Of a DNA stretch of 64,000 nt, positions 4,529 through 64,000 are shown piece by piece. This DNA comes from Cyanophora paradoxa CCMP329 (lineage: Eukaryota > Plantae > Glaucophyta). The DNA lies in the NCBI GenBank assembly GCA_004431415.1, contig QPMI01000402.1:1-64000 (forward strand). Direction: 5' to 3'. Under the pieces are notes generated by a model. It made no database searches. It saw only the letters and a program-made list of their open reading frames with translations, and was not told the DNA's origin. Positions within the stretch are counted from its first letter, which is position 1. The number at the start of each line of letters is the position of its first letter. A program made the translations under genes and the position numbers.

Positions 4529-5200
4529 TTGTCTTTTATCTGCAAGTTCGTAAAAGTGAGCAATCCACAGGTTTGGATATCGAAATACATTTACAGTGAT
4601 TATTTTGTATTAACCAGGTCGAGAAATATTCGAACTGAGCTGAATAAAGCAGCCCAAATGTGTCAAGAGCAGATGAATGTGGTTGATAGCTATCGCTTGG
4701 AAAGAATCGAAATACTCAGAGTGGCTATTATGAGTTATGCTCCAACTGGTGGATGCTTTCTACAAACCCAGAGTGGATTGCTAGGAAGAAGAGCCACAGT
4801 GAATATTCGAAATATAGATGATCCTGCTTCGAAAATGCAATTTTGGCATATATTCACAGAAAAGCGATAAACTCCCATAAGAGGAATGAGCTTTCACAAT
4901 ATCGCAAATGGAAATACTCAGCAATCGCTTATAATCCGCGGCTCTGAATTTCGATAACATCCCATTCCCTGTTGCCTGTGATGCTGAGATTATTGATAAA
5001 TTCGAGGCTCAAAATGCAGGCATTAGCATTAATATATTTGGAATCGATGGAGAGGTTATTTATCCCTGCATCAATCCAGTAACCCAGGCAGAAGCATAAG
5101 GTTAATCTCATGCTGATATTTGATGATGAAGGGAATGGTCATTATATTACAATCATGTCCCTTTCAAGATTATTGAAAGTAAATCATGAAACATACTCCA
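4529..5200 (+). pseudogene. Fragment of Polinton-type DNA polymerase-associated N-terminal region
   Basis: Read across frames: RATVNIRNIDD..FENAILAYIH, NFDNIPFPV, IDKFEAQNAGISINIFG, VNLMLIFDDEGNGHYITIMSLSRLL. These resemble the conserved block that precedes the pPolB domain in Mavericks. Truncated at ~5200. Confidence 0.65.
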
Positions 5201-5514
5201 TACCAGTCCAGGGGCAATTAAATGGGATATCCCGGGCCGCTCGCACGGAACTAGATGCAGCAAATGCACGCACAGGCCCGTACCACACCCACCTGATTTT
5301 AGTTCCTAGCCAGGACCTCTTCTAACGTTCGGCCCGGCCCCCGCCCCCGGCCCCCGCCCCCGGCCCCTCCATTCCCGGCGGCGCCGGACCGCCCCGCGCG
5401 CGCCGCATAACCTCAACGCGCGCCCGAGCTCACGCGCGTCGGCCGCCGGCCGCCGCCCGCTCCCATCACGATTCGATCCCGGCCCCCGGCCCCCCCCCAT
5501 CACGGCGGCTCGCC

Positions 5515-7679
5515 CTACGTTATCGCTAGTCTTCCGAGCTCGAGAGTCGCTATCTGAGGACGTAGAGAGTCGCTGCTCGACCCGGAATCGGCGTCTACTT
5601 TCAGTTTTTCCAGCGTGAAGACGATGCAGTACTGCGCGAGGGGGCGCGGAATCGGGCGGGGCCGGCGCCGGCGGAGGGGACGCCGCGAACTCGCATCCGT
5701 GCCCTCGCTCGCCACACCTCGTGCTCCAGCATGTGCCCTGGCGGCCGCGGCGTCGACGGGGCGCCGTCGTCGGCAGGCATGGAGGGGGGGGGGGATAGGA
5801 TAGAGGGCGCGCACTCGAATAAAGACGACGTCGCGTGCCTTAGGTCGAGCGAGATGCCGAGGGCCGGAAAGCGGAGCCGGTGCAGGGGCGGTCCGCTTGC
5901 CCTCGGGGTGAAAGTAGACGAGGGCGGCGTAGGCTTCCTGCGCGTCGCTGCGGTCCGGTGGCCCTTTGATATCCTAGAGGGCCGTCGGCATCAACGAGGG
6001 CGGGAAAGGGAGCGAGGGGTAAACGGCAGCTCACGTTTCCGGCGGTTCATCCAGTGCATCGTCCAGGTTCCTGCGCGCCCGCGACCCGCGCGTCGGGCAC
6101 GAGCGGGCCCGGGGCCGGCGCACACGCGCTCGCGGACCGTAGCTGTACGGGTGCCGTTCGAGGACCTTCAGGGCGATCTCCGCCATGTCGCAACCGGCCT
6201 TGACGTCGATGGCGCAGAGGGCCGGGAACAGGTACTCGAGCACGCCGACGAGGTGGCCGTTGAGGAGGTGCAGCCGCCGGTTCGCGTTCGTGTCCGCGCC
6301 GTACTGCGGGTTCAGGAGATCTGGGAAAGGGCGGGTCGGCTCGCCCCGCGTCCCGCGCGCGTTCGGGCGGGGGGGTGGGGGCGGGGGCCGCGGACCGGGA
6401 TCGGGACGGTCGCGCCCTGGCCCCGCTGGACGCCGGTGACGATCCTCGGGCCGCGCTCGTGCTCCTTCTTCTTCTTCTTCTTGCCCCGGCGCGGCCGCGC
6501 GGTCGCGGCGGCCCGAGGCCTCCTCTTCGGCCGCTTGGCGAGAATCTCCCGCATCACGTCGAGCCGCCCCGTCCGCAGCGCCGCCTCGGCCGCCTCGCGC
6601 GCCTCGTCCAGCAGCTTCTGGTCCTGCGCGGCGGGCCCCGTCAGAGCCCGGGGCGCGCGCGGGGGGCGGGGCGGGGCGGGCCGGGCCGCACCCGGGCTTC
6701 GTTGTACATGATGCTGCGGCGGATGGAAACGTAAAGGCCGTGGAGGCGCAGGCGACGGCGGCGGCGACCGCTCGATCCCGGCGCCCTCGCGGAAGAGGCC
6801 GGGAGGTGGACGGCGGCGAGGGCGCCGCCAGGGAGATGCACGTCTGCGCCCGCGGTCCAAGACGTAGTCGTGCCGCGCCTCGTCCTCCTTGGAGCAGCCC
6901 GGCGGGAGCGGCGCGACGTAGGCGGCAACTTGCCCTGCGGGCGCGTGAGGCGCGGGCGGGCGCGGGGGAGGGGGCGCCGTACCTCGGCCCGCTGCTGCCG
7001 GATGAAGCGCGAGTCGACGCCGCCCCCGAGGAGATTGCAGGGCAGCGCGACGCGCCGCTCGGGAGATACGGCCCACGACGCCAGCGCCGAGGCGTGCGGC
7101 GGGCCGTGCGGACGCCCGAGAAAGGCCCCCTCGATCGCGCGCAGGGCGAGCAGGTCGACGGGCGGTGGGCTCAGCCCCAGCTCCGAGCCAAAGTGCTCCT
7201 CCATCCGTTCCGGCGGCCCCGTCATGCCTCGGGACGACGCCGAAAGGGAGCTGCGGGGGCGGCCGTCGGGGCGCGCGCGGGAGCCCCCCGCGACCCGGGG
7301 ACGCACGTACAGGACCTGGTCCGCCACCGACGGGGCCGAAGGATCGATAGCCGTATCGTCTCGTCGCGACCAGCTCGGCGCGTTTGTAGGGGCCTGCGGG
7401 GGATCCCCGTTGGGAGGGCGGAGGGGAAAGTGCGGGAGCAGACTCTTCGAGTACACGGGCCCGCCGGGCGCGGGCGTCTTTGACGCGGCGGCGCCGCGAG
7501 CGCCAGGCCGGACGCCTGGAGCTCCTCTTCCGGTTCATCCAGACGAGGCCGCCGCCGCCGCCGCCGCGCTCCGCCGGGGCCGACCCTCCCCCCGCACCCG
7601 CGGCGAGCGAGATGTTCATCATGCGTCCGCGCTGCGCGGCGCGCGCCTTTCTCGACGCGCGGGACGCCGCCGACGCCAT
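5515..7679 (-). CDS. Intron-rich hypothetical protein, divergent from the recombinase gene (exon limits approximate)
   Basis: Protein-like segments in alternating frames (DQKLLDEAREAAEAALRTGRLDVMREIL; LEYLFPALCAIDVKAGCDMAEIALKVLE; YCIVFTLEKLKVD), separated by short GC-rich GT..CAG stretches. Confidence 0.45.
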
Positions 7680-8257
7680 CCAGATGGGAACGGGCGCCTC
7701 GGGCGCGGCCGCGGGCCCGCTGACATCGCCGAGGTCGCTGCGATCACCTTCTCGATCGCGCGCTCTCTTCAGCGAGCTCCCGCCATGCCCGCCGAGGCGA
7801 CGCCTGCAACGGGCGGCCGCCGCGGCGACCGTTAGCCGCAGACGACGTCCGAAAGGGTCGAAATGCTTACCGGAGACTTTGGACACGCCCGGCGGTGTCG
7901 GAATCGATCGGAAAGTGCAAGTTCCCGAAGCGGGCGCGACCACGCCCGCCGATAGAGGTACCCGAGAACCGAGCTTGTGTGCGGATTGCTGGCCAAGCAA
8001 ACTACCGCAGCTGCGTGTAAGCTATCGTCTCGACACGGTTTACGGGAATCCGAGTGGCCGGATCGGCGTTTACGGGGACCAAACGTACCCCCCCCCGTTT
8101 ACGCCGTCCCATTTTTTTTTTTACAGTCGCTCGTTCCCCCCGCCCACGCGCACCCGCCCCTAACCCGCAAGCTCCCCGCGTCCTCTTTCAACGCATAAAT
8201 CGGAGCGCGCAGGCCCTTGCTATCGAGGCGCGCGCAGGCCGCGGGCGCAGCGGCGCC

Positions 8258-11200
8258 ATGTCGCTCGCGTTTGCGCGCGACTCGTGGGAGGTGGTCTCGT
8301 TCGACGCCTACGCCGGGCCCGAGCGCCTCCACGTGTTCCGCACCGACGCCGGGCCCGCGGCCGCCCTGCCCCAGGTTCAGCGCATATTCGGCAACGGACC
8401 CGCCGAGGCGGCGGAAGAGGCGGCGAGGCAGCTCACCGGACCGCACGGCCTCGCGTCGAGGCCGATCGCCGGCCCGCAGACGGAGAGCCTCATCCTCCTC
8501 TGGGAGATGCTCGCGATCGTGCCGCGGGGCCAGCTGCACCCGACCGAGAGCCCGCCGCGCGTCCTCTCCCTCCAGCACGTCGAGGAGCTGGCGTCGATCT
8601 GCTGGGAGGGGTCGGACAGCCCGCGGCTGCGGCACTGCTACCGGGACCTCACCTCGGCGATCGAGCGGCGGACGCAGGAGACGTTCGAGCGGTGCGACGT
8701 CAAGGTGCTCCACGTAGACGGGGCGAGGTTCTTCGCTCTGAAGGTCCGCCGGCTCGAAGTTCCGGAGGTCTCGCCCTGGTACATCCCGCTCGCCAGCATC
8801 GCCCAGTGCATCTACGGCGGCCCAAAGGACACGGCCAGCGTGCGGCGTGAGATCGCGAGGAGCCACCCGAGCCTCGGAGAGAACAGCCCGCACCGCTGGC
8901 TCGCGACGACGAAGACGCTCGGGCGCCCCCACTTTGCCACCCTGGCGAGAACGCTGGTCAGCTTCCTCGCGCTCTCCGGCGAGGCGGGGCAGGAGAACCT
9001 GGGGTCGGCTCGCAAGTGGTCCTTCCTGAGCCTCGAGGGGGCGGAGCAGCTCCTGGCCAAGCTTCCGGGCCGGGATCCCGCGTTCGGCCTCGCGTTCAAG
9101 AGGGCCTCGCTCGCCATCCGAGGCCACGATCCTGCGGAGATCGATTTGATGGTGCCCGAGCCCCGCCCGGCGCGGCGCCTGGCGATCTTCTCCAAGAGGG
9201 AGTGGCTAACGGTACCCCCCCCCCCCCCCCCCCCCCCCCCTCCGGCGCCGCACTCACCCCGGGCGCGCGTAGGATACGATGCTCGCAAACGTGATGACCC
9301 TCCTGCTGCACCGCATGAAGCCCAACGCGAGCGCCAAGGCCCTGTACCCCGCCAGCCTCGACACCATCGTCTCGATCCTGCGGCGATACGCCAAGATGAG
9401 CGACGAGAGGCGCCGAAAGCGGGCGCTATGGCACGCGGCAAACGGCGGGCTCGTTCTGTGCTTTGGCTGCACCGGCGGGGGGCAGGGCGGCGCGCAGAGG
9501 ACGTGGACGACGCGCGGCCACTGGGTCACGCTCGCCCTCGACGGCGCGAGCCGGTATACGCGCCCGCCCCATCCCCCCGCCCCCTCCCACGACCGCGCGC
9601 ACCGCGTCCCCGCAGGCGGTGCAGGTACTTTGACTCGCTCGGCGCGCCGCCGGATCCGAGGTTGAGGCGGGCGGCGAGCAAGGCCTTGCCGTCGTTTACG
9701 TGGGTCACGGAGCTTCCCGATCGCCTGCAAACGGACGGTCACTCCTGCGGTAAGGCCGGCGCCCTCGCCCGCGCGCGCGCACGCGCCGCGAACCGCGCGC
9801 ACCAGGGATATGGGCGCTGTGGTTCGCCGAGAGCCTCGCGCTGGAGGCGGCGACGCAGTACTCGTGGGAAGAGTACCTGAACGACGGCTCCATCGGATTC
9901 CTAAAGTCTGGTGAGGCGTTTACGAGCGAGCTCGGCGCTAAAAACACGCGCTTCATCGCACGGAGGTGCCTCTATTCGGCCCTCCCCGCCCCCGCCCCGC
10001 CCCCACCACGCCGAACCCCGCCCCCCGCAGGCGAGAGGCGTACCGGTCCTTGCTGGAGAGCGCCATCGTCGACACCAGCGATCTCCGCCTGTTCGAGATC
10101 GACGAGGACGTCGACAGCTGGGCCGTCGCGCTCCCCGCATCGAGCCGCGCGCCGCCGGGGGCGGGCGCCATCGAGGCCGCGGGCCCGGCGGCGCCGGGGG
10201 ACCCCTCGTCCTCGTCCGCGAGCTCGTCGTCGTCCGAGAGCGAGGCCGAGGGCGACGAGGGCGGCAGCGACGGCGACGCGCGCCCGCTCACGCCATCGAC
10301 CGCGCCGCCTCGCCCGCCGTCGGCTCGCCGCCGGCGCCCGTCGCGCTCGCCGTCGCCCGGACCGGCTCGCCCCCGGCCGGCGAGGCGCGGCAGCCGTACG
10401 CCCTGCACGAGGGCGCGTTTAGTCGGGCCCTGAAACTGCAGCTCGCGGCCTATCGGGAGTGGAGACAGGCACCGTTGAACGCCTCGCGCAAGGGCAACGC
10501 CGTCGAAAACTCGAGCCTGGCGAACGACCTGGGCATCATTCAGCGGCTGCTGGGCTACGTCCGCATGCGCGAGGGGCTGGAGGGCGAGCTCACCCTCGAT
10601 CTGATGAGCCGGGTCGACGCGGTCGAAATCGTGCTTCGTTTCTTCAAGTGAGGCGGGGCGGCGGGCGCGGTGGAGGGGGGGGGTGCGGGGGGCGTTTACC
10701 AAACGCCGCGGCAGGTTCCTGCGCGAGGAGCGGGGCACGCTGCCCGGGACGCTCGTGAGCTACGCCTCCACCCTCATCAACCTCGCCGCCTTTGTCGCGG
10801 GACGGGGCGGCGCGCCGGCGGGGAGCGAGGGCCCGCACGGTCAGGCCCTGCGCAACCTGCGGGTGAGCTTCCCTCCCGCCCCGCGCCGCCGCCCCCCGGG
10901 GGCGCGCCGACGCGCCGCGCGCACCCTCAGAACCAGCTCGTCGCCGAGTCCAAGGCGGAACGGAAGTGGAGAACGAGAAAAACGTGGGTCCGCTTCGAGG
11001 ACGTCGTTCGCGGGCGCGTCGAGGCCTACGCCGCGTTTCGCTCCGAGGAGCGGCCGCGGCAAAAGGCGAAGTACCTGAGGGAATCTCTCTTGCTTGGGTT
11101 CCTTTCGATCAGCCCGGCGCGGCCGGGCCTCCTCCAGCACCTGAAGATCGGCGAGACGCTGCGCAAGGACAACGGTCGGTGGAACATGTCGATCCTGAGC

Positions 11201-12866
11201 ATGCGGATCCAGGACGGCTCCGAGGAGGGCGCGCTCACCCACAAGACGGCGGTGCGGGGGGCCTCCCGCCGCGCCGCGCCGGGACGCGCGCCGCCGACGC
11301 CCCCATCCGCAGAAGCGGCACGGCGCCGTGATCGTCCCGGTCGCCCAGCAGCTCCAGGTGCGCGCCCCGCCCCGCCCCGCGCGCGCTCCGTCGACCGCTG
11401 CCGCGCGGCGCGTCAGGAGCCGCTAACAGAGTACGTGGAGAGCTTCCGGCGTCACCTGTTGAGCGAGGGCGCCAAGGACCAGGGGTACATCTTCTTCACC
11501 TCCGGCGGCGATGCGTTTCGCCGCGGGTCCTGGACCCTGTTCGCGAAACAGGTGAGGCGAGGCGCGCCGCCGGCGCGGGGCGGGGCTCACCCGGCGCAGG
11601 CCATGAGCCGCTGGACGGGCGTCGCCGTGCCGCCGCGGACGATGCGCGCCGTCGTGACGACCTGGGTGCGCGATCAGGCGGCCCAGGGGCGGATCGAGGG
11701 CGACGTCTGCACCAGCATCATCGAGGGGACGGCGCGCCTCCTCCAGCACACCCCGCGGACGGCGACGATGCACTACGATTGCAATAAGACGCAGCGCGAG
11801 GTGCGCCGCCCCCGCCCCGCACCCCCGGCCCCGCGCGCTCACCGGGCAAGAGGCGTGCGTGGCGCTGGCCTGGCTCGAGCGCGCCGCCGGCGAACTCGAG
11901 AAGCCGACGGTTGCCGCGCTCGAGGGGCCGGAGGGGCGGTCTTCGTCGGACGGGGACGGGGAGGAGGGGGAAGGCGAGCCCGGCGCCGCCGCCGGCGCCG
12001 CCGCCGCCGCCGCCTCGGACGACGGGGAGGAGGGCGGGAGCTCGGAGAGCGAGGACGGCGGGAGCTCGGAGGAGCTGAAGGAGGGCCTGCGCGTCGAGCG
12101 CGAGCTCGCCCGCGCCGAGGGGCGCTGGTGTCCCGAGTGCCGACGCATCTTCGGGACCCCCAGAGGCATCTCCCGCCATCGTTGCTCGCCGCGCACGCCC
12201 AAGGCGCGCGGTCGGAGCGACGACGACGACGAGGAGGATGAGGAGGAAGAGGAGGAGGAGGATCCGACGCCCAAGGCCCCGCGCCGCGAGCGCGGCCGCG
12301 GCGGGCGGGACGTGGCGGTCCGGGACCCGCCGGCGGAAGACGAGGGCGAGGGGTTGGACGAGGCTCCGAAGCGGGGTCGCCCCCGCGCGGCCGCCGGCCG
12401 CCGGCGCCCGCGCGAGCGGGAGGAGATGGCGCCTCCGCCGGCCCCCTGGCACATACGCCTGATCACGCCGAGCCCCATGCCTGCGCGGAGCGTCGTGGCG
12501 GCGATGGTGACTCGGCGGGGCGACCTCTTACCCACGACGGTCTTTGCGAGGCTCACGGCGACGGTGGGGCTCGCCTCGGGCCAGCAGGAGAACCGCCTCG
12601 TCGTTCTGCGCAGGTTCGGCACGCTCTGGACGCCCTCGAACGAGGGCGGGCCGGACGATTACACCTACCCGCGCGCGGCGGTGCCCGTCGAGTACCGCGC
12701 GACGAACGGGGCGATCGACGTGACGACGTCTGCCGAGGAGGTCATGCAGCGGCTCGGCGCGGCCGCCCGCGAGGCCCCGCCGGCGGCGCACCCGCCGGGA
12801 GGGCGCGGGAGCGCCACCGGCCGCCGCCGCGGCCGCCCGCCCAAGAACCTGAGGCGAGGGGCGTGA
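8258..12866 (+). CDS. Spliced multidomain protein: Ulp1/C48-type cysteine protease + tyrosine recombinase + acidic tail with zinc finger and AT-hooks
   Basis: About 10 GT-AG introns restore frame (e.g. 9212-9272, 9554-9615, 9750-9805, 9966-10030). Protease: GHWVTLALD..RYFDSLG..LQTDGHSCGIWALWFA. Recombinase: SPARPG (R), THKTA (K), PRTMR (HxxR box with H replaced), LQHTPRT (H), MHYD (Y). One frameshift is needed near the C-run at ~10370. Confidence 0.8.
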
Positions 12867-21360: not shown

Positions 21361-22016
21361 GCCGCCGGGCGTCGGACGCACTGCGGCACTCGGCGAGTCG
21401 ACGGCGACCCGTGACCGTCGGACGCCCGGCGGCCGAGTATACTATGATAGTACGTATACGTACGGTCGCGATCGGCCCGGACTCGACTGAGTCTACTAGC
21501 TCGGCCGAAGCTAAGCTTAATTAATATTATATACTAGTACTACGGTAATTCAATGATTAAGCTTAAGCTTAACTAGTAAGCCGCCGAAGTTCGAATTCGC
21601 GCGCGGTCCGCGGCCGACGCCGGCCCGACGGTCGGCCGAACCCGACCCCCTATTAATATTAACTTAGTAATATTTTTTAATATTCGATCTGAATCGATGA
21701 TGCCATATGGCATGATGATACTAACTTAGTTACCTTAGTAACTTGTTTTTAGTAACTCACTACTAAGTTACTAGCAGTAACTTCTAGTAAGATACTCCCG
21801 AGTGACCGGGGCCGAGTCCCGACTCCCGAGTCTCGGACTCCGGGATCCGGATCCGGGACTCCGGGACTCCGCCGGGCCGGGATCCGAAATCCGGATGTCG
21901 ATATCGATCCGGAGTCCTGACCGGTACGGCGGTACCGCGGCCGGGACTCCGGGAGTCCCGACCGTCGACGTCGGACGCCGGGACGTCGACGTCTACGTAC
22001 GGTATACGTTTACGTA

Positions 22017-50140: not shown

Positions 50141-50827
50141 TTACGTCCGACCTAGGCCTAGACTACGCATTACTTTTACCACCCCCATCGGAGAGACGCC
50201 GGCCGCGCGCGCGACGTCGGTTGCGGTGGCGCCGGCTCCGTGCGCAACGGCGGCGGCGGCTACCAGAATGGGCGAGCGCGCGGACTCGGAGAGCGCTCTC
50301 GCAACGTTTACGGCCCTGTGGCGCGAATCTGCGTCCAGCGCGAGCCGAGACAAAATAATCTCCACATAGTCCGACGGCCTCGCGACGTACGTCGGCCAGC
50401 AACGACGGCTACGCTGGATGGCGCGCACGCAACGGAAAACGGCGCCGCGTCGGGTGACGAGGTCGGGCGTCCACGTCAACGCATCGGCGAGGAGACGGGG
50501 CGAACGAAGCGCCTTCGAAGCCCAGTACAACCCCGCCGTCGCGAGCACCAGCGCCGAACGACCGTTACGGATGCTCCGCGGCGCGATCACGCTCCGCGCA
50601 ACATCGACGATTCCTTCGGGAACATACAGAGCGATGGCGGCAGAGCGCAGCGCCTCCTCCACGCGGCCGCCACGGACATCGGCCTTGCTTCCATCGTCAC
50701 CGCGATCTTTGCGATCTTCATGGGGTGCGCCCAACACGCGTGGAGTTCGTACGACGCCGCAGCCATCGCAAGCGCACCACTCCACGGTCAGAACCGTCAG
50801 CCCGCCCCCGCACATTGTCCAGATCAC
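50141..50827 (-). CDS. TFIIB-like transcription initiation factor
   Basis: Zn-ribbon half CDGCGVV. Cyclin repeat 1: LYVPEGIVDVA..GRSALVLATAGLYWA..PRLL. Repeat 2: PSDYVEIILSRL..RSPILVAAA..DVARAAGVS. Start uncertain (50827 or 50815). Confidence 0.85.
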   Translation of the reverse strand: MIWTMCGGGLTVLTVEWCACDGCGVVRTPRVLGAPHEDRKDRGDDGSKADVRGGRVEEALRSAAIALYVPEGIVDVARSVIAPRSIRNGRSALVLATAGLYWASKALRSPRLLADALTWTPDLVTRRGAVFRCVRAIQRSRRCWPTYVARPSDYVEIILSRLALDADSRHRAVNVARALSESARSPILVAAAAVAHGAGATATDVARAAGVSPMGVVKVMRSLGLGRT

Positions 50828-52138: not shown

Positions 52139-52683
52139 CTACGCGTCGTCGGCCGTCTCGTCCGTATCCACCTCGATCGTCGTAAACGCCTTGGCCAACC
52201 GCTTCATGACGGCCAGCTTCCGCCGCGCGCCGCCCCCGCCGCCCTTTACCTCGCGCTCAAACGCGCGCGACTCGGCGACGCCGGCAAAGCCGTAGGCGAT
52301 CGCCAGCGCCTTCCACGGGCCTTTTCCCCTCGTATAAGCGAATTTCGAGCCGTAATTGTGCTCCCGGAGCCTGCAAACGGCGCGCGCGTGAGCCGGCCGT
52401 CGGCGCGCGTGCGCGCTCGCGTCTACCTCCTGGCCATGTCGGAGGTGCTCCCCACGTAGCAAATATTCTGGTCGTTTGTAATCAAGTACACGACGGGCTG
52501 CTTGGGGTGGCGCAGGTGGAGGGCCTTGGTCTTGGTCGCGGCGGGGGTCTTGGGGGGCTTTGCGGCGTCGCCGGTGCCGTTGGCGCCACCCGCGTCGTCC
52601 TGCGGCGCCGCGCCGTCGCCGGGTCCCTCCCGCTCTTCTTTGATGGCGGCGCCGTCCTTGTCGCTTTCGAGAGACTCTCCCAT
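52139..52683 (-). CDS. SLX1-like GIY-YIG endonuclease, one intron (52371-52426)
   Basis: Spliced product VYLITNDQNICYVGSTSDMARRLREHNYGSKFAYTRGKGPW..GF..ESRAFE. The 56-nt GT-AG intron removes the stop and restores RRLREHN. Confidence 0.9.
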
Positions 52684-52770
52684 TGATCCGGCGACGGCTC
52701 GAATGTTCAAGGGGGCCCCGAGCCCGTATTTACGCGTGGGCGCGCGCCGAGGGAGGGCCCCCCCCCCCCC

Positions 52771-52864: not shown

Positions 52865-55156
52865 ATGGCGCCGTCGACAGAGTGGAAGGTGGAGTACCGC
52901 CCGCAAAACGGCTCCGCGTACGATGTCGTCAACGACAAGAAGTGGTACTCGGGGTCCAACAAAGTCGCATCCGTTGGCGTCGAGCCCATCAACACCCTCC
53001 TTCGCAAGAGCTCCCTGTTTTTACCCGAGTTTTGGCGCGAGGCGGACCCCTCCGTTCGCTACCACCACATGGGGATCATCGACATCGACGGGATCAGGTC
53101 GGATCCAAAAGGCGCAAAGCCGATGTGGACTCCGGATCGCGAGGAGCTCGATCGTCGCATCGCCGGCGGAGGCCTCGACGGCGCGGACCTCGGCGCGCTC
53201 TGCGAGGAGAATTCGTCGCTCTGGGCGGCTCGCAAGGCGGCGGACCTGATCTCCGCGCGGCTCACGGAGCGCGGCAAGCAGGCCCTTCTCCCCTACTACA
53301 CCGGTAAAAAGGGATTCCGCGTGCTGTTCCGCGACGTCGACCCGGCGACGGGCGTGGACCGCGCGTACGTGCGCGTCCGTAAGAACGAAAAGTGGGGGAC
53401 GCACGAAAACGTAAAAACGTACTTTGAAGATCTTCTCGGGAGCGACCTGCTTTCGATGGAGCTGGAGCGTGGTGGCATCAAGACGACCGTCGGTTTTCTC
53501 ATCGATTACGGCGTTCACGCGACAGGCAAGGGTTGCAAGCCGGACGTGCAGCACCACGCCGTCACAAAGGTGTGGCCGACGCGCGGGCCCACGCTTTCGA
53601 CGAACAGGACCCGCGATCCCGATCCGGCGCTGCGCCGCGAAATATTCCGTCACTTTGATGCCATCTGCACGACGAAGAACCTTTCCGCAGCATCGACGGC
53701 GCGTCTTTACGAGCTGCGGGGCGAGACGACCGAGCCGACCGATTCCGATCGCAATCCAAAGGAGACGTGCGGCGAAGGACCCGACATCGATGTCGAAACG
53801 AAAAGGCAACTCGGGGGAAAGCACATCGTTCATGCGTGGCGTTGCATCCTGCTGGACTCGAAGTATCCACCGGCCGGGTTTCGCGTGGGCACGACCGCAA
53901 GCGACGCGATCAGGGCGACGCACAGGGAATGGTTCTTTAAGTATACGCAAAACTTTGCCCTGCACAACAACCCATTTGGATGGATGCCGGGATCAAAGCT
54001 CAACTCCGAAGAGAAGCGACAACTGAACGAATGGATTCTCAAGAGACAGCTCGAGGCGCTCCGGTTGGGGCTCGAGTTCTGTACCCACGAGTTTACGGAT
54101 CCCGAAGACTGCAACCGATTAAAACTGGATTTTGACAAGCTCCTGATCGACGACCACGCGACGCTACGCTCTCTGCAATCCATTCTCGTGGAGGAGCTCG
54201 GGATTCCCCGTGAACATTGCCGCGTGATCTCCCTCGGAAACCCAAAACGCAGGTCGACGCACGTCGCGTTTCCGGATATAAAGCTGCCCGTGGAGATGTT
54301 CCCGTCAATTGTGCAGCGGATAGCGAGCGCCAAGGGAATGCCCTGGAGCGGATCCCTTGCCGGCAAGCTCGACACGCAACCCCTGTCGTCGCCCTCCATT
54401 CCGCTTCGCATGCTGGGGTCGGTGAAGCGCATCGCTATCGTGTACGAAGACAGCAACGGTACCTCCGCCAACTGGTTAAGGATCGTCGAAGACAGTCGCA
54501 TGCGGTTGCTCGCGGCCGTCGACGCGTTCGGTCAGCCCGACGAGAAACGGTACGCTACAAGCGATGGCACGTTTGAGGCCCTCACGCAACGCCTCCTGTA
54601 CGACGCGTGCGTGCGGGCCCTCCCGGGCTGGACGGCCACACCGCTTTCCGAGGAGACGCGCGAGCTAATTCGCTGCTGCAAACAAAGGGCACGCGGTAAA
54701 TCCAACAAGGTACCGGCGAGCGACGCGGAGTGCGTGGTACTCAAGGAGCTCTTTGAAAAGTACCTCCTCCTCGACGAGGTCGCGGACGCCGTGTTTGAGC
54801 AGTGCGGCGAGACCGACCCGGTCGAAGTTTTCAAGTCCCCCGTGTTTAAATCATCTGGTGACGGATGGTACACTGCCTCCAACGACAAACTCTGGGCGGT
54901 GTGCATTCCCACGGCCGGAAGGATGGTGAAAGGCAAGCCCGCCCACCCCGCCGACAAGGCTCACATCGGAACGGTTTACTTTACCCTCTGCCCCGAGCAG
55001 CGATGCGTCATCGCCGGGTGCCTCCGCGAGACGTGTTGCGCGTTTTACATGCGTGTAGGCGACACGGATTCCAAGTTCCCTCGCACCCGAGTCGGGACCT
55101 TTGGTACCCAAACGGCCCCCGACGCCCCCCCCGCAAAGCGCGCAAAGACCAGGTAG
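52865..55156 (+). CDS. Archaeo-eukaryotic primase with two AEP-like domains and C-terminal UL52/PrimPol-like zinc finger
   Basis: Domain 1: IIDID, YYTGKKGFRV, IDYGV. Domain 2: LKLDFD, RRSTHVAFP, LDTQP..LRMLGSVK. C-terminal C..H..C....C (AVCIP, AHIG, GCLRETC). Confidence 0.8.
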   Translation: MAPSTEWKVEYRPQNGSAYDVVNDKKWYSGSNKVASVGVEPINTLLRKSSLFLPEFWREADPSVRYHHMGIIDIDGIRSDPKGAKPMWTPDREELDRRIAGGGLDGADLGALCEENSSLWAARKAADLISARLTERGKQALLPYYTGKKGFRVLFRDVDPATGVDRAYVRVRKNEKWGTHENVKTYFEDLLGSDLLSMELERGGIKTTVGFLIDYGVHATGKGCKPDVQHHAVTKVWPTRGPTLSTNRTRDPDPALRREIFRHFDAICTTKNLSAASTARLYELRGETTEPTDSDRNPKETCGEGPDIDVETKRQLGGKHIVHAWRCILLDSKYPPAGFRVGTTASDAIRATHREWFFKYTQNFALHNNPFGWMPGSKLNSEEKRQLNEWILKRQLEALRLGLEFCTHEFTDPEDCNRLKLDFDKLLIDDHATLRSLQSILVEELGIPREHCRVISLGNPKRRSTHVAFPDIKLPVEMFPSIVQRIASAKGMPWSGSLAGKLDTQPLSSPSIPLRMLGSVKRIAIVYEDSNGTSANWLRIVEDSRMRLLAAVDAFGQPDEKRYATSDGTFEALTQRLLYDACVRALPGWTATPLSEETRELIRCCKQRARGKSNKVPASDAECVVLKELFEKYLLLDEVADAVFEQCGETDPVEVFKSPVFKSSGDGWYTASNDKLWAVCIPTAGRMVKGKPAHPADKAHIGTVYFTLCPEQRCVIAGCLRETCCAFYMRVGDTDSKFPRTRVGTFGTQTAPDAPPAKRAKTR

Positions 55157-55208: not shown

Positions 55209-55964
55209 TCAGCGTTGCGGGCCCCCAATCGTGGCGGAAACGAATCGCAAGGCCGCGCGCCCCAGCATCCACCGCGGATCGGCGTAGAGGTCCGTAAACG
55301 GGGCGGGGAGGCACTTTGGGAGCCACGCGGATGCCTCGGCGAGGCGCGCGGCGTACTCTCCCGGCTCCTCGGCGAGCCGCGCGAGGTGCTCGTCCTCGAG
55401 GAGTCGCACCGTGGTGGGCGGGACGCGGCACGAGGGACACGCGAGGGCCCTCGGCTGGGCGACGAGCTGGAGGGCGCACGCGAGGCAGAGGACGTGCTTG
55501 CACGGGGTAAACTCGACGGGGCGCGCGGGTCGCTCGAGGCACACGGCGCACAGCCGGTCCGGCTCCGGCCTGGACGTTGATGCCAGGTTCCACGTGCACG
55601 TCGAGAGGAGCGCGAGCGCGCGGCCGAGGCTGAAAAATTTCGCAAGGGCGGCGCGGTCGCGCGCGGGGTCGGCCTCCATGGGCAGCTCGGCGACGGCCAT
55701 GTCGCGCCGGCAGTCAAAAGGTTGGTGGCAGAGGGGCACGCGCACGACGGCGGCGCGGCGATCGGCGTCGTAGTAGAGCGTGCGATCGCCGCGGGCGGAT
55801 TCCAGGGCCGCCGCGCCCGGCGGCGGTTCGGCGCTAGAGGCCGAGCGCCACGCGGGAAGGGTGAAGAGGCCGCCGTCCCTGACGGCGGGCGCGAGCCCGG
55901 GGAGGTCCTGCAGGACGCACGTCCGCTTGGTGCACGGCTCGACGGCGCTTGGCTCGGCCTGCAT
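55209..55964 (-). CDS. C3HC4 RING-finger protein (putative E3 ligase)
   Basis: CAVC..PCKHVLCLAC..CPSCR. TATAAAAGG lies ~55 bp upstream. Confidence 0.9.
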   Translation of the reverse strand: MQAEPSAVEPCTKRTCVLQDLPGLAPAVRDGGLFTLPAWRSASSAEPPPGAAALESARGDRTLYYDADRRAAVVRVPLCHQPFDCRRDMAVAELPMEADPARDRAALAKFFSLGRALALLSTCTWNLASTSRPEPDRLCAVCLERPARPVEFTPCKHVLCLACALQLVAQPRALACPSCRVPPTTVRLLEDEHLARLAEEPGEYAARLAEASAWLPKCLPAPFTDLYADPRWMLGRAALRFVSATIGGPQR

Positions 55965-56329: not shown

Positions 56330-56396
56330 CAACCGGCCCCTGGGGCCCATGGTCGAGTGCGAGCCTCCCCCGGACCACCCCCGTCGCGCCGGCACC

Positions 56397-59300
56397 ATGA
56401 CGGGCAAGCGGTCCTCTCCGCCCATCCCCTCGCCCTCGGACGACGAGGGAGACGACGCTGCAAAGCGCGGGAGGATCGTAAACGACGAAAGCGGTGGCAA
56501 GATCGAGGACGCAATCGACTCTATGGACGTCGACCCCATCCCGCCGCCGCCCCGCCCCGAAGACGCCGTCGAGGTCATCTTCGACGGCGCGTGGCACCCC
56601 TGGACGGCGCTCGAATCGTCGTCCGAGTTTGAGCGGCGCGGCATGGCGTCCACCTTTGCGGTTCGCTCCAACGGCCGCCTCCGCCTCGTGCGCTACGGAG
56701 GCGTGGAGACCTTTGTCGCCGAGGGCGTGCGCCACGCGCGCCGCCGCGAGCTCGTCGTCCGGCTGCGCTCCGAGCGGTACCGCCGCTGCTCGCTCGCGGC
56801 GCTGCTGCGCGCGTTCCCGGACCTCCGTCGGGCCGCGCGCGCCGCGTTTCGCCGCTGCCAGAAGCTGGAGCGCTGGGGGGTCCCGTTTACGCTCGAGTAC
56901 GACGGCGCGCTCGGGTTCCGCATCTTTTACAAGTCCATCACGCGCTTTCGCGAGCCGCCCCTCGGGCGGCGCTTTGCCTCTTTGGAGGGGCAGACCACGG
57001 CGACGCTCCCCTCGTACCTTCGGGTCCTCCCGAGCAGCGTCCCCGCCCCCGCGTCCGTCGAGACGTACCTCGGCGCCGCCGCCGCCTCGGTCCAGCTCCC
57101 CGCCACGCGCATCGACGACTACCGCGCGCTGGGCTCGGACGAGCGCGCGGAGCGCGTGCTCGTCCGCACGGGCGAGCCGGACGACGGCTCGTGCGAGGCG
57201 CGCGCCGACCTCGCCGAGTGGCTCCTCCCAGAGGTCGTTCGGTACGCGGGCGGCCTCGGGGTGCCGCCCGCCGCGCCGGCCGGGAGGACGATCGAGCTCG
57301 ACGACGCGGAGCGCGCGCGCTTTGCCGTGGCTCTCGGCCTCGTCGCCGGCCCCGCCTGCGCCGAGCTGGCGGCGGCGCCGGGGCGCGTTTACGTGGACCC
57401 CGCGAGCGTGCGGGTGGAGGCCTGGGTCAACTCGATCGAGTACCGGGCGCGTTTACCGTGCCCCGCGTGCGGGCGGGGGGACCGCTGGGCCGAGCTGACG
57501 GCCGACTCGGTGCGGGAGCGCGTCGGCGTGCGCTGCTGCGGCGAGTGCGAGCCCGCCATCGCGCGCAAGCGGCGGCGAGCCAACCGCAGCCGCTACCCGA
57601 AGCGGCCGCTCCACTCGGCGCTCAAGGCGCTCCGGCAGTGCGAGGTCGCCGCCGACGAGGCGCGCTTCGGAAACCTCGGTCGGGACGCCGTCGAGCGGCG
57701 GGAGCACTACATGGACGCCGCGCGGTTCGGTGCGACGGCGAATCGCGCGTTCGAGGGGTGCGGCACGGCCTCTGCCGAGCACGTCGCGGAGATCGAGCGG
57801 GTGGCCGAGGCGACGGCGAGGCTTTTCGGCGGCGAGGGTACCTTTTGGACGCTCGAGGGCATCGCCGAAAAGTGGGCCACGCTGAATGAAGAGGAGCGCC
57901 GCAAGGAGCGGGGCGCGCTGCGGACGGGCTTTCAGCTCCCGGAGCCCGGCAAGATGGACGATTGGATGAGGGTCTGTTGTCCCAGAGGGGGAGATCGACG
58001 ACGCGATGGACGAGATCATCGTGGATCCCGACGTGACAAACGTTTACGTCGACGACAGGCTCATCCACGACGCCATTGCGCGCGCCTTTGCGGAAGGATA
58101 CGAGCGCGTTTACGTCGTGCTGGAGGAGGGCATGGGCGCCGGAAAGTCGACGGCCATCCTCAGGTCGGCCGCAGAGGTGGTCCGGGACCCAACGATCGCG
58201 AACCTCGCCGAGGACACGACCGTTTCGATCGCCTGGTTCGTCAACTCCCGCTCCCATCCCGACCAGCTCAAGGAGAGGAACGACTTTCGGGCGGTGTTTC
58301 GCGGACTCGTGGACAAAGAGGGGAGGGAGGTGCAGCGGTGCTGGATCGGGTACAGGGAGGAGCGAAAGGCGGGCTCCGATGCGCCGGACGCCCTGCTCGT
58401 GACGGCCGAGTCGTCCCATCGGTTCGTCCAGGGCGCCTCGCCGTACCACATCCTCGTCATCGACGAGGTCGGCAAGATCGCCGCCATCATCAGCTCGTCG
58501 GGCACCCTCGCCAAGGATTTACGCCAGGCGGCCGCGGCAAAGGCTCTCGCGCGGATGCTGGCCGCGGCGCGCGTCGTTTATCTCGCAGACGCCGACCTGG
58601 ACCGCGAGACGCTCCGATTTGTCCTCGACATGGGCAATTCGGAGCCACGACCCGACGTAAACGCCTCCGAGGGGGAGACGGCGGCGGGGACTCGGACGAC
58701 GAGGGGGTGGCGCTCGCGGGGAGGACCGGCGCGGCGCGGACAAAGCGCATCCTGTATCGTAAATCCCACGGGGCGGGGGCGACATGCGCCACGCGTGGGC
58801 CGCGCTCCCGCTCTCTGAAGCCGGGCTGCGCGTCGCCGCGCTGCTCCTCCTCGGCTACAAGGTGATCGTCTCCTCGACCACCAAAGACGAGTTCAACGCG
58901 ATCTGCGCCGTTGTCGACAGCCACCCGGACCTCGCGCACGTCCGCAGGGCCCTCGTCTGCGGCAACTCGGACGATCGCGATCGCAGGCTCTTTTCCGACC
59001 CGAACCGGTTCGCCGAGCTGGACTTAATATGTTACAACACCGCGGTCGCTCAAGGGAGCTCCATGGACGAACCCCACGTGCTCTTTGACGTCTGCTGCGT
59101 GGTGCACGGAGGCGTCCTCGGGGACGTCAACATCCAGTACCAGCTCACGCCTCGCTGCCGGGCCTTTTCCGAGACCCTCGCGCTCATCTTCTGCCCCCTC
59201 GGGACACAGCCCAAAGAGAACGCCAAGGGCGCGCTCGAGCTCCTCGAAACGCGGCGGGCCGAGGTCCGGAGTCACCGGCGACGCGAGCGGCGCGACAGGG

Positions 59301-61768
59301 GCGCGGGCGTTCGCAGGGAGCACGACAACGGCGCCTTTGCCGTGGCGACGGCGCAGTGGTTGAACCCCACGCAGGAAAACGCCCTCCTCCGTCGTCAGGC
59401 CCACCAGATGGCCAACGAATCGCACACGCGCCGCAGCTTCATCTCGTCCTTTAACGCCAAGCTCCTCTCGCGCGGCAGCCTCGGCGTGGTCGTCGTTGAT
59501 TTCAGCGCTCCCGCCGGCGAAAATGTAAAGGAGGAGATCCAGGCGCTACGCGAGCTCTTCCGCCTGCACGTCATCGCCCACCCGGTCCTCGGCGCGCGCG
59601 CCCTCCCCGGCGAGGACGTCTCACAGGAGAAATCGGCGGCGGGCCGGCTGTTTACGGCTCGCAGGGCCCACCGCGGCGATCCAAACGACTACGAGCGTCG
59701 CTCGCTCGATCTCGCCTTTGCCGCGCAGGCCTTTTGCGTTGCGCCGGAGGAGCTCGGCGCCCGCGATATCGTCTGGTACCTCCAGGATCCCAACGGCAAG
59801 AAGAATCGACCCGAGCTCAGGAACCTCCTCCACGCGCTCGAGGTGGAGATGGGCGGCCGCCCCCGGCGCGCTCGGTCGACGTACGTTCTCCAGCCCACGT
59901 TTACGGACGAGGCGCACGCGGACCGCAGCTTTCGGGAACTGCTGGAGATGGTGCGGTGCCCGGCGTTGCTCGCGCTCCGGCACGTCGTGGATTCGAGCCG
60001 CGCGGGCGCGGCGCCCGTCGCCGACGCCGCGGTGGCGGCGCCCCTCTTGCGAATCGCCCTCTCCGAGGCGCCCCACGACCCGCCGGGGTTGGCGACCTCG
60101 GCGGTGCGCGTGGGGCTGGACGTCCTGGGGCGCGACCTCTTTGACGATGCGACCAAGGCCACGCTGGAGGCGACGATCTCGGTGGAGGCGGGGCTCCTCG
60201 AGCGCAACTTTTCCGACCTGCCGGCCGAACGACAGGCGTGCATCAAGAGGGCGGTCGGGGTCGGGGATGCGGATGACGCTCTGCCCGTCGCCGCCGTCGG
60301 CCGGGCGCTCGCAAAGCCATCCGTGCGGGACGAGGCGCGGGCCCTGTTTTACGGGAGCGTTGCCGGGCAGGCGCCCGTCGAGGTGGCGCGCGGCGAGCTC
60401 GAGGAGCTCTCGACCATGCTGGCGGCCCGGCGCGCCCTCGAGGACGAGGTCGCCGTCGAGGTCTTTCGAACGTTGGACGTCGTTACGGGGCGGCTCGCCC
60501 CCGGGGAGCGCATCACGGCCGAGACGGTGCTGCGCATCGGGCGCGACGGCGAGCCGGCGGCCGTGGAGGAGCTGCGCAAGGTGACGGCCAGGCTGCTCGT
60601 GGCGCCGCACCGGGACGCTCGCTCGCTGGAGCGCGGCGCGGCGTGGAGGGAGCGCCTCGCTCGGCTGACGGACCTCGGGCCCTTGAACGTGCTCGACCCG
60701 GCCGGCGCGGACGACCACGCCATCCGCACCGAGATCGAGCGCCTGCGCGTGCTGGGAGTGGGCGCGGACGAGTTTGGTCGGCCCCTGGCGTGCCCTTTGG
60801 TCGAGTCGGATGCGAAAGGCGTCCTCCTGAACCTCTACGCCAAGGCCATCGAGCACGTCGGCCTCCCCTTTCGTGCAAAGGATACCTTTGGTGCCATCGC
60901 ACGGGCAACCCGCTTCTGTTCCGACAGTTTACGTCCCCTCTCCGGCACGTTTCCGACCCTGGCGGCCCGACTGGGCCAGCTCAACCTGGCGTTTACGGTC
61001 CTGGCGGCGGCCGCGACGGTGCTGGGACGTGCAAAGAAGAGGGCGGCGGATATCAAAGCGGCCAAGCAGCGCGCGCACGATCAGAAGATACCCTACCGAG
61101 AGCCCCCCGAGCCCGAGTATCCCGCGGAGAACCCGTTCCTTTGGCTCTCGGCCGAGGCGCGCGCGTCGCTGACCCCAGAGGACGGTGTCCTGTGCGATTA
61201 CGACGTCAGGGACGTTGTACATCGCGCGCTCTCGTCGCCAGAGGCGAGCCCGGTGCTGGATTGGGACGTAAACGGCACGACGGTGCGCGGGGCGGTCGTA
61301 AACGCGCTGCAATGTGCCGAGACGGCCCTCCAGGAGGCCACGAACCTGCGAATCGCGGCCACCGAGGACGACGTGCGCGCCCTCTGCGAGCAGGTGGTTC
61401 GGTGGAGGGCCGAGCACGGCCACAGCCGCGTCCTCGCCGAGCCGTATCCGGAGAGGCGCGGCCGCGGCGACCACATCCTCGTCTGCAGGTCGCTCTTCGA
61501 GACGTACACGTGCATGGGACGCGAGCCGACGGTGACTTCCTCCGGGGAACGGATCGGGTGGTTCCTGAACACGTCCTCCGAGAGCGGAATCGCCGCGGTG
61601 ACCAAGTGGCAGGAGGAGACGTGGAAGACGCCGCCCCAGAGCGCCGGGGTGTTCCCGCCAAAGGCGAATCGCTACCGCGAGATCGAGCGGGCCGGCCGGC
61701 GGCGCACGCGTTACCTTTGCATACCGCGGCAGTGCTTTGTAAACGTAGGCGTTGCGCTCAATTTTTAA
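56397..61768 (+). CDS. UL9-like origin-binding SF2 helicase (~1790 aa) split by three frameshifts
   Basis: EGMGAGKST (I), VTAESSHR, YHILVIDE (II), VYLADADL (III), VIVSST (IV), LICYNTAVAQGSSMD (V), YQLTPRCR (VI), in herpes UL9/NCLDV ori-binding order. Frame changes at G runs at ~57970, ~58688 and ~58778. Confidence 0.85.
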
Positions 61769-61828
61769 TACCAATCACATTTCTAATCCGTAAACGGTCT
61801 CGACCTGGGAATGGGGGGCGCGGAGGGC

Positions 61829-64000
61829 CTACGCAACGGCGGCGGGCGGTGCCATCGGGCGCGCCCGGAGCAGCGACGCGCGGCGGCGGCTCGCCCCGTG
61901 CGCCTCGTCCTCCAGCGAGATCAGCGTGCCGTCGGTGCAGCGGCACGCGTACATGGGGCCGCCGAGCGGCCAGACGGCGGCGACGGGCCTCATCACGCCG
62001 ATCTCGACAAAGGCAAACTTGCCCGTCGGGTAGACAAAGAGGACGCGCCAGCCCATCGAAGGCTCGTACCCGAACCAGCCCGTCTCGACGGGAAACAGGT
62101 TTTGACCCTCGGTCCACGCGCGCCGGGCGATGCCGACGTGCCGAAAGGTCGCGGTGGCGCCGTCGGAGACGTACAGCGAGTCGAGGCCGCGCTCGTCGCG
62201 GCAGACGAGGGCGAGCGCGTTTCCGCCGAGGTCGCGCAGGAAGCGGGCGCCGGCCGGGTCCGTGCGGGCCCTCTTGCAGGCGGCGGCGCGCCCGGGGTCG
62301 AGCCAGAGGGCGACGGTCGCCGGCGCGTCGTTGTCGCCGTGCGCGGACCACTCCAGGAGGACGGCAGAGTCGCGCGCGTCGGCCTTGGCGTTTGACGGGC
62401 GCTCCGCGTCCGCGAGGGCCTTGGGATCCCACCGGAGGAGCGGGCTGTCGCGCGCCGCGGCGAGGTCGATGCGGGCAATGGCCGTCAGGACGCCCGCGCG
62501 CGCGCGGAGGGAGCGGACGTCGACGGTCACGCCGCGCTCCGCCAGCGGCCCGAGGGCGACGGCGCGCGCGCCGGCGGGGTGGCAAAGGAAGAGCGACAGC
62601 GGGGTCCCGTCGGCGGCGGCCGTTGCATAGGCGGTAAACGGGCCGCAGGTGGCGAGCGAGCCGGAGACGATGCTCTCGCCGTCGGGGATGGGAACGCCCG
62701 CGCTCGGGTCGCCGCGCTGCGGCTGCTTCGTAAAGGACGGCGAGGCCGCGCGTTTCATGGTGTCGCGGATGTGGAATGAGCAAAAGTGCGATGGCGGGCG
62801 CGCTCTAAGGAGCGCGTGGGCGGCGCCGGATTCGTGCGAAATAGGTTTGGTTCCATTCGATTCACAAACAGTCCAGCCAGGCGGACGCGGGGGGTACTTC
62901 GACGATGCGAAATCCGCTTTGCATGGTGGGGATGGTGACGGCGACGGCGGGGCCGCGCGCCGCGGCGGCCCAAGCGACGATGGTGGACGAGGTCGGGCCG
63001 TAGAGGGCGAGTACGCGGGGCGGGGGTTCCACCTCGCTCGCGCGGCCGTCGTGGCTCACGCGAAAGAATCCGAGCTCGTCCTTCGAGTCGCCCTCGGCGC
63101 GCGCGTACTTGCAAACGCGTCCCGCCAGGTAGGAGACTCTGCTCCGGTCTCGGAGGGCCCTGCCGGCGATCGGCATCGTTTGACCGTCGGGCCCGACGAA
63201 GACCTCCCGCTCCTCTGAACAAGCAATGAGCCAGCCGTCGGCAAACGGGACGATCATTTGGGTATTGATGCTGGCGAGAGGCGAGCCCGCCGGGGCGAGC
63301 TCGATGCGCCTCGCGGTTCCGTCGCCGACGTTTACCACGAGCAAAGCCGCTCCGTTGGCCATGGCGTCGGCGTTGTTGGTGGCGTTGGGGGCGTCGGTGA
63401 TGGTAAATAGAACAGAGGTGCAGCGTGCGTTAATCCGGTGGGCCGGCCTGGAGTGAAACGATTGCGCTTCCGCCATGATCGCGTTTGCGTGCTCGGCGAG
63501 GTCCAAGAGGATGCGGGGTGGGGCGCCGACGGGCCAGGAGACTATCGACCCCGGTTCGTCGGCGGCGGCGTTGAACGGAGCGGCCTGGAAGCGAACTTCG
63601 CCGTCGTCGGCCACCCAGAGGCCCGAGAGGCGCGGGCGGAGTTCCATGCGTGCGAGGACGGCCGCGGGGAGCGTGTCCACGGCGCCGGAAGGGTCGATGC
63701 GTAGGAGCGCCTCGGGTTGGATCGCGAGCGAGGCGGGCGCGCGCTCGACGGCGAACCAGCGCGCGTCGGGGCTGGGGGCGACGCGCCGCACCGCCCACTC
63801 GCCCTCGGGACGCCAGCGCCCGCCGCCGCGGCGGACGAGCGGGCCGGCGCGTGCGGCAAGGCGTTGCTTCCAAAAGGGCATGGTCGATTCGGCGTCGATG
63901 GTTGCGACGTAGCACTCGTCGGCGGCGCTCGCGAAAGCGTCGCGATCCTCTGCGTCGAGATGCGAGGCGATCATTGCGAGGACCTCGCGCGGGAAGACGC
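61829..64000 (-). CDS. F-box protein with beta-rich (propeller-like) C-terminus, one intron (62805-62865), 5' end outside window
   Basis: FPREVLAMIASHLDAEDRDAFASA (F-box) at the window edge. A 61-nt GT-AG intron joins ORF 62862-63974 in frame to ORF 61829-62758. Confidence 0.7.

Follow-up and report, generated by a model that had tools for sequence, protein, structure and literature searches.

The 64,000-nucleotide stretch of the glaucophyte alga Cyanophora paradoxa CCMP329 analyzed here (contig QPMI01000402.1, positions 1 to 64,000; the window) carries, between 23 and 64 kb, a virus-type replication module that includes a family B DNA polymerase (PolB), an AEP primase, and a helicase of the UL9/origin-binding type. 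We read this right block as likely a dormant, integrated large nuclear DNA virus, with the left block (5 to 20 kb) possibly serving as its integration and latency arm, and we put the probability of this reading at about 0.5. That the right block is of viral or mobile origin appears highly probable, and nuclear replication dependent on host RNA polymerase II (Pol II) is reasonably probable. The lineage, so far seen only in Cyanophora, is apparently undescribed. A first-pass annotation of this DNA had proposed an integrated nuclear virus-like element; the replication module of the right block lends support to this, but the compositional edge, the introns in replication genes, and the raised coverage that had been linked to it do not.

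A virus-type replication module in the right block

The features of the window are collected in Table 1. The polymerase motifs of PolB are intact, and the Exo I and Exo III aspartates, two carboxylates of the exonuclease, are replaced, so that loss of proofreading is predicted. A polymerase apparently without proofreading would help to explain the extreme divergence of the family. Against all of the relatives found, PolB reaches 24 to 32% identity, and it has no C-terminal C4 fingers; among viral contigs, 80 loci were kept, none of them above 32% identity. Its best match in the PDB is Pol delta. The low identity, absent fingers, altered exonuclease, and lack of introns nonetheless support the view that PolB is not an ortholog of the host Pol delta, and the host orthology that the first-pass annotation had held open fails to that extent. 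In trees (quick and FastTree runs on 37 and 103 rows, with no labeled Pol delta included), PolB fell outside a well-supported clade holding most of the viral-contig polymerases.

The primase has Atlas neighbors of the C962R/UL52 type: all six of the clusters listed are 88 to 100% viral and four of the six carry AEP_C962R or Herpes_UL52, with scores of 0.91 to 0.94. No HMM match was obtained with Pfam, PHROG, or NCBIfam, and no relative was found at an E value of 0.01 among 7,992 candidates. Since the representative of its cluster is an unrelated 48-amino-acid (aa) piece, clustering can hide paralogs. For the helicase, the four top fold matches of the predicted model in the PDB were the HSV-1 (herpes simplex virus 1) origin-binding protein, and origin-binding proteins also led the matches in a viral fold library. 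The fold matches share 10 to 16% sequence identity, and the model is only partly confident (mean pLDDT of 49.7; 60 to 88 in the core); it is consistent with a UL9-like helicase. A helicase profile retrieved nothing relevant from the PDB, and 0 of 122 stretches of viral contigs aligned with the helicase. In NCBIfam, the helicase matched CyRepA1 of a cyanobacterial plasmid with an E value of 0.007, and its sister helicases did so with values down to 7e-9.

Coverage and transcripts were read from assembled contigs of sequencing runs, and contig depth is a rough guide to copy number. An 11.4-kb short-read contig (run X1; depth of 193) spans 52758 to 64000 with one mismatch and four single-base gaps. 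Because all of the gaps lie in the helicase gene at frame breaks, the gene is taken to be continuous and the frameshifts to be assembly errors. The EukProt protein P0068 of C. paradoxa is 94 to 100% identical to three helicase open reading frames (ORFs) of the window, which we accordingly place on the contig of P0068, tig00020539. Protein P0067 was considered as a second, diverged copy and rejected, as one contig covers the same interval with that single mismatch; P0067 is probably an assembly duplicate.

When 1.84 billion representative proteins were searched by phmmer, the helicase had five matches, namely, itself, the near-duplicate P0067, and three other Cyanophora proteins. The three sister helicases lie on tig00000042 (two models, one cluster), tig00020553, and tig00021072 and are 25 to 33% identical. 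P0080 is colinear with the helicase over 1,930 columns, at full length and 31% identity, and the other sisters are at about 26%. In P0079, AEP-like motifs are fused N terminal to the helicase, an arrangement described for mimivirus R8 and ASFV F1055L (10.1101/2024.02.29.582850). The match between the primase and the P0079 N terminus was not significant (E value of 0.069). P0077 and P0080, both on tig00000042, are near-identical sister models 23 gene numbers apart and represent a recent duplicate or an assembly duplicate. Since the only helicase relatives detected lie on three other Cyanophora contigs, diverged elements of one family appear to reside in this genome, and we infer from these proteins that the sister helicases mark whole sister elements.

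The TFIIB-like factor matched archaeal TFB in the PDB (E value of 0.001), and an N-terminal zinc ribbon is present in its sequence. PolB, the primase, TFIIB, and the RING protein all withstood the profile and cluster searches as originally named. The TATA promoters were seen as well, with TATA-like boxes lying about 50 to 70 nucleotides (nt) before the ATG of the PolB, primase, RING, ATPase, F-box, and 8258 genes. The PolB, primase, helicase, and ATPase genes are intronless. The genome of C. paradoxa is 67.6% GC and probably haploid, and its genes average 9.2 introns, of 86 bp (PMC6704402); in such a host, the lack of introns in replication genes speaks for a module of virus type. Between the 15 kb of the left block and 33 to 36 kb of the right, a strict screen gave 12 versus 0 introns and a looser screen 10 versus 2; inspection by eye showed a few introns in the right block. 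The spliceosomal introns first noted are thus real in the left block but are not spread through the region.

Three repeat arrays are present in the right block, where two origin-like arrays had been counted: 62 bp ×10.6, 129 bp ×6.4, and 537 bp ×10. A single 537-bp unit folds at -201 kcal/mol (z of -16), which 0 of 100 shuffles reached, and this hairpin array is, from its sequence, the best candidate origin. A partial copy of the unit lies at 43020 to 43260 (duplication region of 43020 to 44250), beyond a 171-aa gene.

Among the remaining genes, the MORC protein of the first-pass annotation survives only as a GHKL ATPase, as the HATPase_c_3 match was clear and the PDB search was empty. The F-box claims are weak (E values of 0.012 for the 41794 gene and 0.1 for the last gene), as is that for the GIY-YIG nuclease, and the Skp1 claim is unconfirmed, all searches for it being empty. 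No significant match in Pfam, PHROG, or NCBIfam was found for the orphan genes at 23305 to 32189, where a unit of about 480 bp is repeated at 26.0 to 26.9 kb (duplication region of 25984 to 26800). Neither Rfam nor ARAGORN matched any RNA gene in the window (0 matches).

The following sequence of events would accommodate these features. The UL9-type helicase would attach to the 537-bp hairpin array and open it, and nuclear copying of the DNA would fall to the UL52-type primase and the element's own, probably nonproofreading PolB. Host Pol II would read the TATA promoters, aided by the element's TFIIB, and the RING and F-box proteins might turn host ubiquitin ligases to other targets. With its tyrosine recombinase, the left block would provide for excision and insertion of a circular form, and Ulp1 and SET proteins could adjust host chromatin in latency.

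Table 1. Positions of features in the 64,000-nucleotide window
Feature	Coordinates	Strand	Evidence or remark
Decayed, high-copy, AT-rich Polinton/PLV-like repeat	1..5225	+	Flank, outside the element
D5-type primase-helicase, broken	901-2917		In flank repeat; Pfam PriCT_2 and DUF5906; PHROG primase, E 3.6e-20
GIY-YIG gene	3736-3894		In flank repeat
Gene truncated by GC-rich DNA	4484-5225		In flank repeat
Orphan gene(s) with introns	5950..7830	-	Coding segments; one RNA-labeled contig covers 6982-7250 and 7443-7802
Putative Ulp1/C48-type protease gene, long first exon, 4 introns	8258..10433	+	Spliced model
Spliced tyrosine recombinase, C-terminal C2H2-like finger	10289..12866	+	Spliced model, Atlas
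Multi-exon orphan gene, transcribed	14881..18150	-	
Spliced gene, presumably SET-like, and 3' region	18355..20460	+	Spliced model
Spacer of nested, overlapping short palindromes	20200..23250		Multicopy island at ~22.05-22.2 kb
Orphan gene cluster, few introns	23305..32189		Codon-model segments
Two tandem arrays, 62 bp ×10.6 and 129 bp ×6.4	32282..34132		TRF, 98% and 95% matches
Family B DNA polymerase, 1,204 aa, intronless	34259..37873	-	Pfam, E 1e-50
GHKL ATPase	39472..41397	+	HATPase_c_3, E 8e-6
Protein with likely N-terminal F-box	41794..42948	+	F-box, E 0.012, below curated cutoff
Ten 537-bp units	44249..49470		149-bp inverted arms around 93-bp AT-rich core, one CGTTTACG each
ORF previously labeled Skp1-like	49526..50020	-	No match
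TFIIB-like factor, Zn ribbon and cyclin repeats	50141..50815	-	NCBIfam PRK00423, E 1.3e-8
GIY-YIG nuclease (weak), one short intron	52139..52686	-	Two exons, E 0.018 and 0.058; joined frame open
AEP primase, NCLDV-herpesvirus (C962R/UL52) type	52865..55156	+	Atlas; DxD and GKKGF motifs
RING-finger protein	55209..55964	-	zf-C3HC4_3, E 3.5e-8
Predicted UL9/origin-binding-type SF2 helicase, ~1,800 aa, upstream Cys cluster	56349..61768	+	Fold matches
Two orphan genes	61829..64000	-	Last with weak F-box, runs off window

The left block

The recombinase near the left edge was recovered as a spliced gene in which five GT-AG introns join to an open frame bearing the R..K..R..H..Y residues. In Atlas, its rows contain both Phage_integrase, at 10% of members, and telomere resolvase, and the first-pass identification is thereby retained. 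The C-terminal finger matched zf-C2H2_4 (E value of 0.016); no single exon had a match in Pfam or PHROGs. Left-block exons are joined by contigs from two RNA-labeled runs, X17 and X18, which were taken as RNA (a label is absent from the records, and the pieces skip predicted introns). Such contigs cover 10097 to 10401 and 12026 to 12479 of the recombinase locus at depths of 6 to 11.

The spliced model of the neighboring gene is open over 640 codons and has the H, D, Q, and C motifs of an Ulp1-type protease; its exons had no Pfam match, so that this earlier claim is kept as a motif-only one. The predicted structure of the 8258 ORF has a pLDDT of only 35; a Bro-N identity for this ORF is a speculative idea. 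Upstream of this gene are CATAAA, at 8194, and two copies of CGTTTACG. Between 10.3 and 10.4 kb, the Ulp1 frame runs into that of the recombinase, and here the RNA-labeled contigs have a one-base gap and end at 10401; the two may form a single protease-recombinase fusion gene. A pairing of this kind is known, in that CryptonF-2_PS and some CryptonS of oomycetes encode a C48/Ulp1 peptidase (PMC3212892).

RNA-labeled contigs link 18291 to 18572 with 19306 to 20461 of a further spliced gene (depths of 40 to 51). We take it to be SET-like from a motif in the spliced model, and to this degree the SET claim persists, but it had no database match and its PDB search was empty. For the adjoining orphan gene, a 2,381-nt RNA-labeled contig (depth of 41) links 14814 to 15067, 16344 to 16538, and 17354 to 17906. 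The two transcribed genes point away from each other on either side of 18150 to 18300, a short region with one CGTAAACG and a possible bidirectional promoter. No housekeeping gene was recognized in the left block by Pfam searches. Near-identical dispersed copies of the block were not seen, its long contigs being at depths of 141 to 191; diverged copies would escape.

The AT-rich flank and the spacer

By composition, the window falls into four blocks, with GC contents of 0.39 at 1 to 5.2 kb (CpG observed/expected ratio of 0.44), 0.73 at 5.2 to 20.2 kb, 0.49 at 20.2 to 23.2 kb, and 0.67 at 23.2 to 64 kb. As the host is GC rich, the GC-rich DNA of the window is host-like in composition, and the first 5.2 kb, AT rich and CpG depleted, is the outlier. 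Contig depth is about 2,000 to 13,000 over 4.0 to 5.3 kb, compared to about 140 to 190 in the adjoining DNA. The sharp edge on which the first-pass annotation relied is real at 5.2 kb but is not evidence for a foreign GC-rich element, its AT-rich side being a high-copy repeat. The last gene of the repeat is cut midgene at about 5225, which fits insertion of GC-rich DNA and also a deletion. We presume this truncated gene to be the N terminus of a pPolB; a search with it gave only chance matches. Searches with flank sequences returned 0 and 2 loci, by chance only. Polinton-like elements have 366 capsid matches in C. paradoxa according to a supplement row (PMC10120064).

The spacer contains 49 palindromic 10-mers against 4.4 ± 1.9 expected. 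Its multicopy island has a bin depth of about 3,900 and many variant contigs. Two TTAAG-rich clusters lie around an island in which a B-box-like word occurs near 20955, and words resembling the spacer palindromes are present in other contigs of the genome. As a guess, the palindromes arose by template-switch synthesis at a junction. A 20-mer match of the spacer in metagenomes was discarded as chance, the match being to a bacterial operon.

One element or two

The case for linking the two blocks rests on a shared word, a shared tetranucleotide signature, and a shared promoter design, with a precedent in the punuivirus, a single integrated virus in which intron-rich latency genes lie beside intron-poor virulence genes (10.64898/2026.10.09.758095). 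The window holds 48 copies of CGTTTACG against 2.7 expected, a number reached in 0 of 100 shuffles (10 of the 48 lie inside one array), and the word is enriched in both blocks, as had been claimed. GTAAAC was the first or second most overrepresented 6-mer in the left block (16 versus 1.8 expected) and in three of three right sub-blocks, and GTAAAC/CGTTTAC was the leading overrepresented word on both sides. The tetranucleotide correlation (r) was 0.66 to 0.80 between left and right, compared to 0.74 to 0.83 within the right block. Also in favor are the absence of any recognized housekeeping gene from the left block and the midgene cut in the repeat at about 5225, of the sort that an insertion would leave. 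We give even odds that the left block is part of the same element as the right.

The GTAAAC/TTTAC word also skews synonymous codon choice in the coding DNA of 23250 to 64000, like a genome-wide signature sequence. In the right block, Val-Asn is written GTA AAC in 10 of 19 cases and Val-Tyr GTT TAC in 8 of 11, and Phe before an ACN codon is TTT in 20 of 24; the left-block sample is too small to compare.

Several observations weigh against a single virus. The sharing of motif and tetranucleotides may be genome-wide, as it was compared without a host DNA control, and the AT-rich repeat itself has 5 GTTTAC against 1.4 expected. No terminal repeat or att-like match was found between 5150 to 5700 and the spacer or other edges, and intron density differs about 10-fold between the blocks. 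No capsid, portal, terminase, packaging ATPase, D5, or RNA polymerase gene was recognized in the element part of the window when 39 and 96 ORFs were scanned with PHROG and Pfam, together with NCBIfam, the right block running past 64 kb. In the trees, PolB is a long branch that joins another long branch and is unstable, leaving the forks unsettled, and a word-limited search gave no second Cyanophora PolB. Depth was 193 to 229 on long contigs of the right block (193, 211, and 229) and fell as GC rose (r of -0.81 over 10 contigs; the 16 DNA runs used may be of one strain). The right block is therefore at about 1×, not amplified as had been anticipated, and nothing shows current replication. From 49.5 to 64 kb, the listed X17 and X18 pieces are at most 26 nt long and X22 has none, which is no evidence of silence.

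The most substantial rival, which we consider a real though minority possibility, is that a Crypton-like recombinase-Ulp1 transposon with passengers (5 to 20 kb) landed in a Polinton-like copy and that a separate fragment of an endogenous large virus (23 to 64 kb) was integrated by other means, in a repeat-rich region. The recombinase-Ulp1 combination, being a known Crypton pairing, agrees with this, as do the confinement of host-like intron density to the left block, the 3-kb palindromic spacer with multicopy pieces separating the blocks, the lack of similarity between left- and right-block proteins, and recombinase Atlas neighbors that include Preplasmiviricota and cnidarian clusters. However, the top motif, composition, and promoter design are common to both blocks, the left block, in contrast to a transposon family that is active, has the depth of a single copy, and short terminal direct repeats were not identified at the candidate edges, the ends being undefined.

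The fullest version of the one-element view is tentative. The 5- to 64-kb region would be one temperate large DNA virus, or a capsid-less giant replicon, with its own recombinase and a spliced latency arm; with this would go, just as tentatively, a new lineage with herpesvirus-like nuclear replication from the hairpin origin array and at least four diverged members resident in the genome. It is improbable that the right block is not viral at all but a capsid-less, self-replicating or plasmid-like giant replicon that diversified inside the Cyanophora lineage. The lack of a virion gene in 41 kb, the restriction of relatives to the host genome, and the CyRepA1 match of the helicase family would suit such a replicon; against this, the right block runs off the window, beyond which virion genes could lie, large DNA viruses typically have TFIIB, RING, F-box, and a primase of this type, and sisters at 25 to 33% identity also fit repeated infection by diverse viruses. 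Divergent host paralogs, or a long-read assembly artifact behind the adjacency, are very improbable: the Pol delta match, the near-identical P0067 on another contig, and the finding that none of the short-read contigs listed spans 5225 to 5333, 20493 to 21313, or 21874 to 22192 are outweighed by intronless genes, a primase and helicase of viral type, the missing C4 fingers, the presence of both blocks in the same runs at similar depths, and the nearly exact agreement of long contigs with the window.

Comparison with known systems

Viral regions in Cyanophora have already been reported, flagged only in bulk; the lineage of the right block was not found in the literature searched. For C. paradoxa, methylation has been described in giant-virus regions whose best hits are mostly nucleocytoviruses (PMC12344493), with cytosine methylation and silencing reported for viral genes of this species in general, and a glaucophyte assembly was reported to have more than 1% viral content and endogenous mriyavirus-like regions (10.1101/2025.04.19.649669). 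We found no published account of the locus or of the helicase family, although the contig may appear in PMC12344493 (Fig. 3) or in the bioRxiv supplements; one supplement of PMC12344493 does not name these contigs, and the main text of the mirusvirus host-range paper (PMC10827195) does not mention Cyanophora. Since no virion, packaging, or RNA polymerase gene was recognized in the window and the PolB branch is unstable, we file the element in no viral phylum.

The left block resembles oomycete Cryptons in its recombinase and Ulp1, and the recombinase, lying close to an end of what would be a giant element, also recalls Starships (PMC10175614). Teratorn, a transposon-herpesvirus fusion, likewise joins an integrase unit to a viral genome, but its enzyme is a piggyBac transposase, and at this locus the joining of the two blocks is a possibility. 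To our knowledge, Cryptons and Starships carry no replisome. The bipartite organization, intron rich and intron poor, resembles that of the punuivirus of Chlamydomonas, an endogenous element of Nucleocytoviricota.

Mriyaviricetes are similar in being nuclear and without an RNA polymerase, and some yaraviruses fuse an AEP to a UL9-like SF2 helicase. However, PolB is missing from mriyaviruses as described, which measure 35 to 45 kb and have an HUH endonuclease (10.1101/2024.02.29.582850), whereas the locus has PolB and its right block is already 41 kb without a capsid gene. A six-frame motif scan for an HUH endonuclease gave one match, in a frame of noncoding look. Membership in Mriyaviricetes was rejected given the PolB. 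Like the locus, Mirusviricota are large DNA viruses of protists, some of them predicted to be nuclear and intron rich; in the account available, the intron-rich ones lack PolB, whereas the replication genes of the locus are present and intronless (PMC12768974), and the mirusvirus virion module was not found in the window.

Giant endogenous viral elements (GEVEs) of Nucleocytoviricota are likewise integrated virus-type gene clusters in algal genomes, and PolB, TFIIB, AEP, and a UL9-like helicase occur in nucleocytoviruses too (PMC3493329). The locus differs in having no recognized D5, packaging ATPase, capsid, VLTF3, or RNA polymerase gene in the window. Scans of the window gave no double-jelly-roll capsid, A32 ATPase, or VLTF3, and a D5-type SF3 primase-helicase was present only in the AT-rich flank, with none at 5.2 to 64 kb. 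It also differs in its TATA-type promoters and in having detected helicase relatives only in Cyanophora.

The locus points to a resident large-element family with replication enzymes for which no relative could be detected when large protein collections were searched. It bears on which capsid, if any, the family uses and on whether a large eukaryotic DNA virus is integrated by a tyrosine recombinase. The herpesvirus systems with which it is compared are the UL9 origin-binding protein, UL52 primase, UL30 polymerase, and palindromic origins. Differences from these are the algal host, the element's own TFIIB, the replaced exonuclease residues, the low identity of the fold matches, and the lack of a detected HK97 capsid, portal, or terminase in an incomplete window. 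The likenesses are the UL9 fold, the UL52-type primase, PolB, palindromic repeats with AT-rich cores, and Pol II-type promoters. By analogy, the locus would work like a herpesvirus replisome, with an enzyme set that is common to nucleocytoviruses as well, and would represent a herpes-like replisome in an early-branching alga.

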